A stretch of 64,000 bases of DNA. Source: Escherichia coli. Lineage in GTDB: Bacteria; Pseudomonadota; Gammaproteobacteria; Enterobacterales; Enterobacteriaceae. This document shows, piece by piece, positions 48,018 through 48,441 of the stretch. The stretch lies in NCBI RefSeq assembly GCF_030013205.1, contig NZ_CP122648.1, one strand, 5' to 3'. A program made the position numbers and the translations under genes. The notes beneath the pieces were generated by a model. The model saw only the letters and a list, made by a program, of their open reading frames with translations. It was not told the origin of the DNA and did no database searches. Each line of letters begins with the position of its first letter. Positions within the stretch are counted from its first letter, which is position 1.

Positions 48018-48281
48018 ATGATCGATCTGGAAAACCAGGAACGGGAGATTATCAATTTAATGTTCAGCCAGGGTATATCCTGGATAACTGCCGTGCGTAT
48101 CAGGCATAAACTATCACTTGCTGAAGTAAGTAAAATGTTAGGTATCTCCATTAATTCTCTAATACAGATCGAAAAGACGGAACGGCTTAGTTCAAACATC
48201 AAAAGCAAAATGGCAGGAATTTATGGTTGTCCACCAGAGTTGCTGATATGCCCTTCCTGGATGACGGCTGAACATAAATGA
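48018..48281 (+). CDS. small XRE-like HTH domain protein
   Basis: 87 aa with helix-turn-helix-like segment LSLAEVSKMLGISINSLIQIEKTE; occupies the K-12 yjjJ position. Confidence 0.5.
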   Translation: MIDLENQEREIINLMFSQGISWITAVRIRHKLSLAEVSKMLGISINSLIQIEKTERLSSNIKSKMAGIYGCPPELLICPSWMTAEHK

Positions 48282-48376
48282 ATAGATTCGTGAATAGATA
48301 CTTGAATGGATTTTATTTTCTATCCATATGAAAAATAATAGTAAATCTATAAATCAGTTGCTATTGATGAATAGAT
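48279..48376. repeat. iterated 9-mer TGAATAGAT motifs (4 direct copies, 1 degenerate)
   Basis: copies at 48279, 48291, 48304 (tgaatggat) and 48368; first overlaps the HTH gene stop codon. Confidence 0.5.
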
Positions 48377-48379
48377 ACT

Positions 48380-48408
48380 AAAAAGCCGGAGCAGTCTCCC
48401 GCTCCGGC
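48380..48408 (-). terminator. rho-independent terminator of deo operon
   Basis: hairpin gccggagc...gctccggc with T-run on minus strand after deoD. Confidence 0.75.
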
Positions 48409-48441
48409 TTCACAAGGCAATCGCCTTTCAGCGAAACACAA

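Follow-up and report, generated by a model that had tools for sequence, protein, structure and literature searches.

Apparent retention of conserved hipH upstream boxes beside an unrelated helix-turn-helix gene between lplA and deoD in Escherichia coli

The window, the whole 64,000-nucleotide stretch of an Escherichia coli contig (NZ_CP122648.1) that was analysed, carries an 87-codon open reading frame (ORF) on the plus strand (48018–48281) between lplA and deoD. The gene order is radA (−), serB (−), ytjB (+), lplA (+, 46970–47986), the small ORF (+), deoD (−, 48442–49161), deoB, deoA and deoC, and the locus is 100% identical to that of swine ETEC/O139 strains. In K-12 the interval between lplA and deoD is occupied by hipH (yjjJ), as an earlier reading of the window made from the letters alone (the sequence-only reading) had stated. 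K-12 hipH encodes 443 residues, lies on the deoD strand and has its stop codon abutting the stop codon of lplA. In the alignment of K-12 with the window, homology ends at the last base of the lplA stop codon and restarts exactly at the complement of the hipH ATG; it then runs through three tandem 9-mers, is lost over 56 nt and returns at a fourth 9-mer, the deoD terminator and deoD itself. The features of the locus, in window coordinates, are the following.

46970–47986, plus strand: lplA (lipoate-protein ligase A), the left flank; K-12 homology through the last base of the stop codon.
47987–48272, no strand: allele-specific 286-bp segment, in place of hipH codons 2–443 and stop codon (1329 bp) of K-12.
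48007–48014, plus strand: purine-rich stretch resembling a Shine-Dalgarno sequence (GGGAAGGA), shortly before the start of the small ORF.
48018–48281, plus strand: 87-aa XRE/Cro-C1-type helix-turn-helix (HTH) gene, annotated by PGAP as 'helix-turn-helix domain-containing protein' (WP_024229288.1).
48273–48275, minus strand: retained hipH start codon; ATG on the minus strand is CAT, the His86 codon of the small ORF.
48279–48287, minus strand: hipH box 3, the ATG-proximal box (ATCTATTCA), overlapping the TGA stop of the small ORF.
48291–48299, minus strand: hipH box 2 (ATCTATTCA); this unit is missing in loci L004, L012 and L013.
48303–48311, minus strand: hipH box 1 (ATCCATTCA), the same variant as in Salmonella.
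48312–48367, minus strand: spacer at the position of the hipH promoter in hipH-bearing genomes, strongly diverged from K-12.
48368–48376, minus strand: distal hipH box (ATCTATTCA), adjoining the deoD terminator, with a 56-nt spacer as in K-12.
48383–48410, minus strand: deoD intrinsic terminator hairpin (−25.3 kcal/mol, z = −4.9), then UUUUU on the minus strand.
48442–49161, minus strand: deoD (purine nucleoside phosphorylase), the right flank.

The 286-bp segment displays no blastn homology to hipH or to K-12, while both of its flanks align, and its GC content is 40.9% compared with 53–57% in the flanking genes and 54% in hipH. The final two sense codons of the small ORF and its stop codon (CAT AAA TGA) sit in the former hipH leader. 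By the alignment, the hipH coding sequence alone has been replaced, with the leader and the ATG retained. Since homology with K-12 extends up to the hipH start codon and only the coding sequence is swapped, the 9-mers are very probably operator sites orphaned by the loss of hipH. The word orphaned applies because the retained ATG is followed in the window by no hipH coding sequence and opens only an 18-codon frame (MFSRHPGRAYQQLWWTTI*; 48222–48275, minus strand), which is antisense to the 3′ end of the small ORF and probably meaningless. An imperfect inverted repeat, ATCTATAAATCA / TGATGAATAGAT (83%, 8-nt gap; 48345–48376), flanks the distal box; it is found in this allele only and is absent in K-12. 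No known RNA family is detected within 47900–48500 at E ≤ 1.

The combination of a small HTH ORF with nearby repeats described by the sequence-only reading is real. Exact copies of the 9-mer TGAATAGAT begin at 48279, 48291 and 48368 and one degenerate copy, TGAATGGAT, begins at 48303, all of them on the plus strand; on the opposite, hipH strand the motif reads ATCTATTCA. Three of these four same-strand copies follow a 12-bp period and the remaining one lies 65 bp further on, and TRF reports a 12-bp period with 2.8 copies at 48279–48312. Over the whole window, 13 motif matches with at most one mismatch compare with a shuffle expectation of 12.7, which amounts to no overall enrichment, but four one-strand matches inside 98 bp have a P of about 1.6e-7, far from a chance cluster. 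The inverted partial copy also proposed (atccat, 48322–48327) is 6 nt long, allele-specific and indistinguishable from chance. About 0.5 exact copies of TGAATAGAT are expected by chance in 64 kb, and two further ones, both intergenic and devoid of tandem partners, are found in the window at 9610–9618, about 20 nt upstream of the start of a minus-strand ORF (8424–9590), and at 20585–20593, directly downstream of the stop codon of another minus-strand ORF (20595–21881).

The box array was defined from eight hipH loci as three tandem copies of ATCTATTCA, each with at most 1–2 mismatches, at a 12-bp period on the hipH strand, with a further distal copy about 56–65 nt upstream of the tandem set. 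The window has the three tandem boxes at the 12-bp period and the distal copy, here with a 56-nt spacer. A sigma-70 consensus scan of the hipH strand gives no match in the window and none in K-12 either, so that its negative result in the window is no evidence of an inactive orphan promoter.

K-12 holds four exact copies of ATCTATTCA and none other in 6.5 kb (0.03 expected). Orthologues of hipH with 48–69% protein identity reside in the deoD-hipH-(lplA)-smp slot of Salmonella enterica, Citrobacter freundii, another enterobacterium, Kosakonia, Cedecea and Erwinia, and these six syntenic loci display a distal ATCTATTCA, a spacer of ~55–65 nt and three 12-bp-period boxes ending 1–5 nt before the ATG. 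In Pantoea, where the upstream neighbour of hipH differs from that in the syntenic loci, three tandem boxes, two of them degenerate, end 17 nt before the ATG and the distal box is located further upstream. Between Erwinia and E. coli the 9-mers are fully conserved, and neither the 3-nt linkers nor the spacer can be aligned from one genus to another. By our own reading, the spacer contains a promoter of the form TTGACA-17-TTAAAT in Salmonella, or TTGACA-17-(T/C)TAAAT when the further enterobacterium is included, and in both the −10 element would extend into the first tandem box. The array is thus found upstream of hipH in K-12, Salmonella, Citrobacter, Kosakonia, Cedecea, Erwinia and Pantoea, all of which are without the 87-aa gene. 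No recognisable Shine-Dalgarno sequence precedes hipH (K-12, L001 3734–3772; L015, L018 and L020–L022); the N-terminus of HipH, MS.L(T/S), is conserved and the annotated start therefore appears correct. An extra 163-aa gene, which has no Pfam match, lies between deoD and the box array in two loci (L016, 1832–2323; L017, 201–692), where HipH is 69% identical.

When viral and prophage contigs were scanned for pairs of adjacent boxes, 89 stretches matched; two permuted control motifs of the same composition gave 104 and 13. Because 89 lies within the control range, the bulk of the viral matches is background, a widespread phage or mobile motif is rejected, and only four loci with a HipH homologue are meaningful. 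These loci (L070, L073, L076 and L080; IMG/VR contigs from isolate genomes, called viral) encode a 434-aa protein with 35% identity to K-12 HipH, and three boxes, again with a 12-bp period, precede its ATG by 17 nt. Neither deoD, lplA nor smp is found nearby, and no obvious distal box is present within 170 nt. The occurrence of the boxes beside Pantoea hipH and beside this 35%-identical homologue indicates that they travel with hipH and not with the neighbourhood or with the 87-aa gene.

Comparison of the lplA-deoD interval across strains, which the sequence-only reading had proposed, reveals that hipH and small-ORF alleles alternate. Of 5426 complete E. coli genomes, 1348 (~25%) have hipH, 4073 (~75%) have the small-ORF allele and 5420 contain the flanks; since the two counts together approximate the number of flank-bearing genomes, the alleles are alternative and small-ORF carriers are without hipH. 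All but three of the 5468 matching places are chromosomal (5465/5468). Box variants comprise TGAATTGAT and TAAATAGAT in E. marmotae-type sequences, TGAATAAAT in L008 and TGAATGGGT in L012, and a 12-bp unit (window 48288–48299) is lost in E. coli 118UI (L004), Escherichia sp. E1V33 (L012) and E. coli SCPM-O-B-8794 (L013), which display two tandem copies, not three. These changes, scattered among small-ORF lineages, are consistent with a relaxed constraint on the boxes. In L013, which also carries the HTH allele, the spacer differs at about 15 of 56 positions and none of the retained boxes has changed; a residual constraint in the absence of HipH could explain this, and recombination is equally compatible with it. 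In E. coli WB61 (NZ_CP020025.1, 673687–673826) only the first 140 nt of hipH match, annotated as 'transcriptional regulator', and this looks like a third, truncated locus state that keeps just the HTH-coding end.

The small ORF encodes what its profile match and modelled fold identify as a genuine XRE-type HTH protein, predicted to bind DNA. Residues 25–76 match Pfam HTH_3 (PF01381) at 24.3 bits (E = 3.2e-5), a small margin over the cut-off of 23.0, and a profile search of the PDB retrieves CylR2 (E = 1.3e-4). The AlphaFold model (pLDDT 89.5, pTM 0.80) displays an N-terminal helix (residues 4–18) followed by a five-helix HTH. The top Foldseek matches in the PDB are all XRE HTH proteins, with target-normalised TM values of 0.6–0.76 and an rmsd of 1.5–2.1 Å over 53–60 residues at E-values of only about 0.02–0.1, and the nearest structures are CylR2, DdrO-N, restriction-modification (R-M) controller C-proteins, SinR and P22 c2. 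Pairwise dN/dS is about 0.2–0.4, based on small counts. The HTH_3 match, the confident fold, these dN/dS values and a syntenic orthologue of the same length with 40% identity (see below) lead to the rejection of a chance frame. Origin as a fragment or relative of the HipH N-terminus, a homology the earlier reading had suggested searching for, is likewise rejected: the two genes lie on opposite strands, blastn and BLASTP reveal no similarity, and BLASTP of the 87-aa protein against K-12 HipH gives nothing better than E = 0.19 over 6 residues. Antitoxin and defence profiles give generic HTH matches only (PADLOC HTH_VI, E = 2.3e-5; NCBIfam PezA/NadS, E about 0.03, far below cut-offs). No adjacent co-oriented toxin gene is present, the neighbours being lplA and deoD in the window, in the 4073 E. 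coli genomes and in L009, and no target, partner toxin or mobile-element gene is evident for the small ORF.

The lplA stop codon and the small ORF are separated by 31 nt in which no terminator was found, and this short distance, together with the purine-rich stretch before the ATG, makes co-transcription of the small ORF with lplA probable. At codon 50, a CAG-to-TAG change (the Q50 stop; 656–658 of the L006/L007 locus, window 48165–48167) is found as an exact 65-mer in 1686 of the 5426 complete genomes, corresponding to at least 41% of E. coli small-gene carriers, in which the boxes are kept. Frameshifted copies of the small gene are also found, that of L004 having a 1-nt frameshift. On the evidence of these alleles the small HTH gene is dispensable.

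Relatives of the 87-aa protein were sought among 5.8 billion proteins by a word-indexed search and among 1.84 billion representatives by exhaustive HMMER comparison. In both, the protein is confined to Escherichia/Shigella (E. coli, E. marmotae and cryptic clades) with two exceptions, and a profile search of genome contigs with the HTH alignment adds only two other Escherichia species representatives. The first exception is an 87-aa orthologue with 40% identity in L009 (a Logan DRR526040 contig), in a syntenic lplA-ORF-deoD arrangement. LplA of L009 is 89% identical in protein to that of E. coli, and its lplA shares ~80% DNA identity with Escherichia, Citrobacter and Kosakonia equally, which indicates another genus. 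The box array is missing from L009, where only TGAACAGAC is seen at the stop codon. A hairpin follows the ORF in L009 and apparent REP-type repeats then stand in place of the array (864–1371); a 29-nt element of this contig (1146–1174) matches three copies in L016. The second exception is P0085, a 129-aa XRE protein with 41% identity and an extra N-terminal domain. The gene for P0085 is convergent with and adjoins that of a 761-aa DUF2357/PDDEXK_7 protein (L010, 3258–6079), in a defence-system-like context. The sequence-only reading had reckoned with a chance ORF and with repeats absent from related genomes; the protein has homologues and the boxes are found in many genera.

The TGAATAGAT repeats are in all likelihood the conserved upstream boxes of hipH (yjjJ), left in place after the coding sequence was swapped for a 286-bp segment with an unrelated XRE HTH gene, and HipH autorepression is their most likely function. 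In hipH-bearing genomes one ATCTATTCA box precedes the promoter and the other three lie in the interval from the promoter to the start codon, which is a repressor-operator layout, and the binder of the boxes would most probably be the N-terminal winged-HTH domain of HipH itself. The recognition-helix region (ISQATFSRL) and the wing (GKARATRYAL) of HipH are nearly invariant across genera whose whole proteins are 48–69% identical. This invariance, matching that of the 9-mers, suggests autorepression through the boxes in combination with what has been published on the HTH: the domain has been proposed to bind DNA (PMC8262856) and is needed for nucleoid localisation and toxicity (PMC11452175). At the present locus, the low-GC segment would have taken the place of the hipH coding sequence only, bringing the small HTH gene on the opposite strand. 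With no hipH there to regulate, the window boxes may be regarded as orphan sites in slow decay, and the small HTH gene as real but dispensable and not the partner of the boxes.

Published data bear on HipH autorepression on both sides. Reg-Seq describes two repressor sites at the yjjJ promoter relative to position 4621716, a transcription start site (TSS) that is a computational prediction only: the site at −24..+18 was assigned to MarA on bioinformatic grounds, and the site at +30..+45 has no factor assigned (PMC7567609). On the same scale the K-12 boxes extend over −48..−40, +17..+25, +29..+37 and +41..+49. The +30..+45 site coincides with boxes 2–3, up to the end of the mutagenised region. 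Counting against HipH binding, no sites were recovered when tagged YjjJ was mapped by ChIP-exo in K-12 (10.1101/2021.06.10.447994), c-di-GMP acts on hipH transcription at the promoter through a factor that the study leaves unnamed (PMC11452175), and MarA is the factor named for the neighbouring Reg-Seq site. On the HipH operator the literature offers nothing beyond Gerdes 2021 and Reg-Seq, and for the 9-mer itself the published matches were only unrelated primers and shRNAs.

The same three observations give some room to the reading, unlikely as a whole, that the boxes serve as operators for a different host transcription factor, such as a MarA/Rob-type or c-di-GMP-responsive regulator, and are still functional without hipH, for instance by silencing an orphan promoter directed antisense towards the small gene and lplA. 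Conservation of the 9-mers across genera and the unchanged boxes of L013 beside a diverged spacer are also in its favour. However, the boxes accompany hipH to a different neighbourhood in Pantoea and accompany the 35%-identical homologue in an unrelated context, box mutations and deletions occur in several HTH-allele lineages, and the 9-mer, by our own reading of the consensus, is unlike a marbox. A compound reading is very improbable: the 12-bp-phased ATCTATTCA repeats would be the hitherto undescribed operator of the HipH HTH down to its 35%-identical homologues and would still be selected in hipH-less E. coli through a second factor, possibly the 87-aa protein. If this were true, the lplA-deoD slot would have undergone a cassette exchange, with its one operator array common to two unrelated HTH proteins.

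The proposal of the sequence-only reading that the repeats belong to the small HTH gene fares worse still. That the 87-aa protein binds the TGAATAGAT repeats, as the operator- or iteron-like array of a small regulator, of an antitoxin or of a mobile-element remnant, is highly improbable, although the gene adjoins the repeats, encodes a credible DNA-binding XRE HTH and is borne by a low-GC segment, and although its nearest distant relative, P0085, stands beside a DUF2357/PD-(D/E)XK defence-like gene that suggests a mobile origin. The array is older than the gene, being present without it upstream of hipH in many genera. It is located 3′ of the gene: lying on the opposite strand to hipH, the gene runs into the array and does not start from it. 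The divergent orthologue of L009 has no array, and at least 1686 genomes retain the boxes alongside the Q50-stop allele. XRE dimers typically bind palindromes, whereas these boxes are direct repeats. In addition, no toxin, rep or integrase gene is adjacent. Weakest of all, and scarcely credible, is action of the three tandem boxes in the hipH mRNA leader (on translation or stability) and not as DNA operators, with untranscribed or antisense relics in the window: with the Reg-Seq TSS these boxes make up most of the 5′ UTR, Reg-Seq measures RNA output, the boxes abut the ATG of a gene that has no recognisable Shine-Dalgarno sequence, and the tandem boxes of the distant homologue come with no obvious distal one, but that TSS is only predicted, seven genera have a fourth box of equal conservation ahead of the −35 region, and a 9+3 pattern phased on one strand, in which the 3-nt spacers vary freely, is what protein-DNA sites typically show.

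As hipH upstream boxes, the repeats find their closest counterpart in the monocistronic HipA-family toxin-kinase locus hipH (yjjJ) of K-12 (Gerdes et al. 2021, PMC8262856), which displays the same deoD/lplA slot, leader with ATG, four ATCTATTCA boxes and deoD terminator. In contrast to K-12, the window is without the kinase gene and the promoter spacer is unalignable. Similarly, in hipBA a HipA-family toxin gene is preceded by multiple operator-type sites over the promoter and leader, where the HTH protein HipB binds four TATCC-N8-GGATA operators. The hipH sites differ in being 9-bp direct repeats with a 12-bp period and not palindromes, and their presumed binder would be an HTH fused to the kinase instead of a separate antitoxin. 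The 87-aa protein shares the five-helix HTH_3 fold of small XRE/Cro-C1 regulators (CylR2, R-M controller C-proteins, SinR-N, P22 c2 and the toxin-antitoxin antitoxins MqsA-C/HigA), but it has the extra N-terminal helix and neither a partner gene nor a palindromic operator was found. Short tandem direct repeats are held in common with plasmid and phage iterons; unlike iterons, the array belongs to a chromosomal promoter and is conserved together with hipH, and no Rep gene, origin features or mobile-element genes are present. Of the earlier suggestion of operator- or iteron-like repeats, the operator part is thus borne out and the iteron part falls away. Of a toxin-antitoxin or mobile-element remnant, what stands is the remnant of a toxin (HipA-family) locus, and the tie to the small HTH gene does not hold.

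The locus itself is a common and already annotated E. coli polymorphism. Modestly new is the conserved hipH box array, consisting of 1 + 3 ATCTATTCA boxes, which overlaps an unassigned Reg-Seq repressor site. HipH (YjjJ) is an orphan HipA-family toxin, and the box array provides a testable hypothesis of its autoregulation. Most E. coli are naturally without hipH, which matters when results on persistence or c-di-GMP from K-12 or UPEC are generalised.
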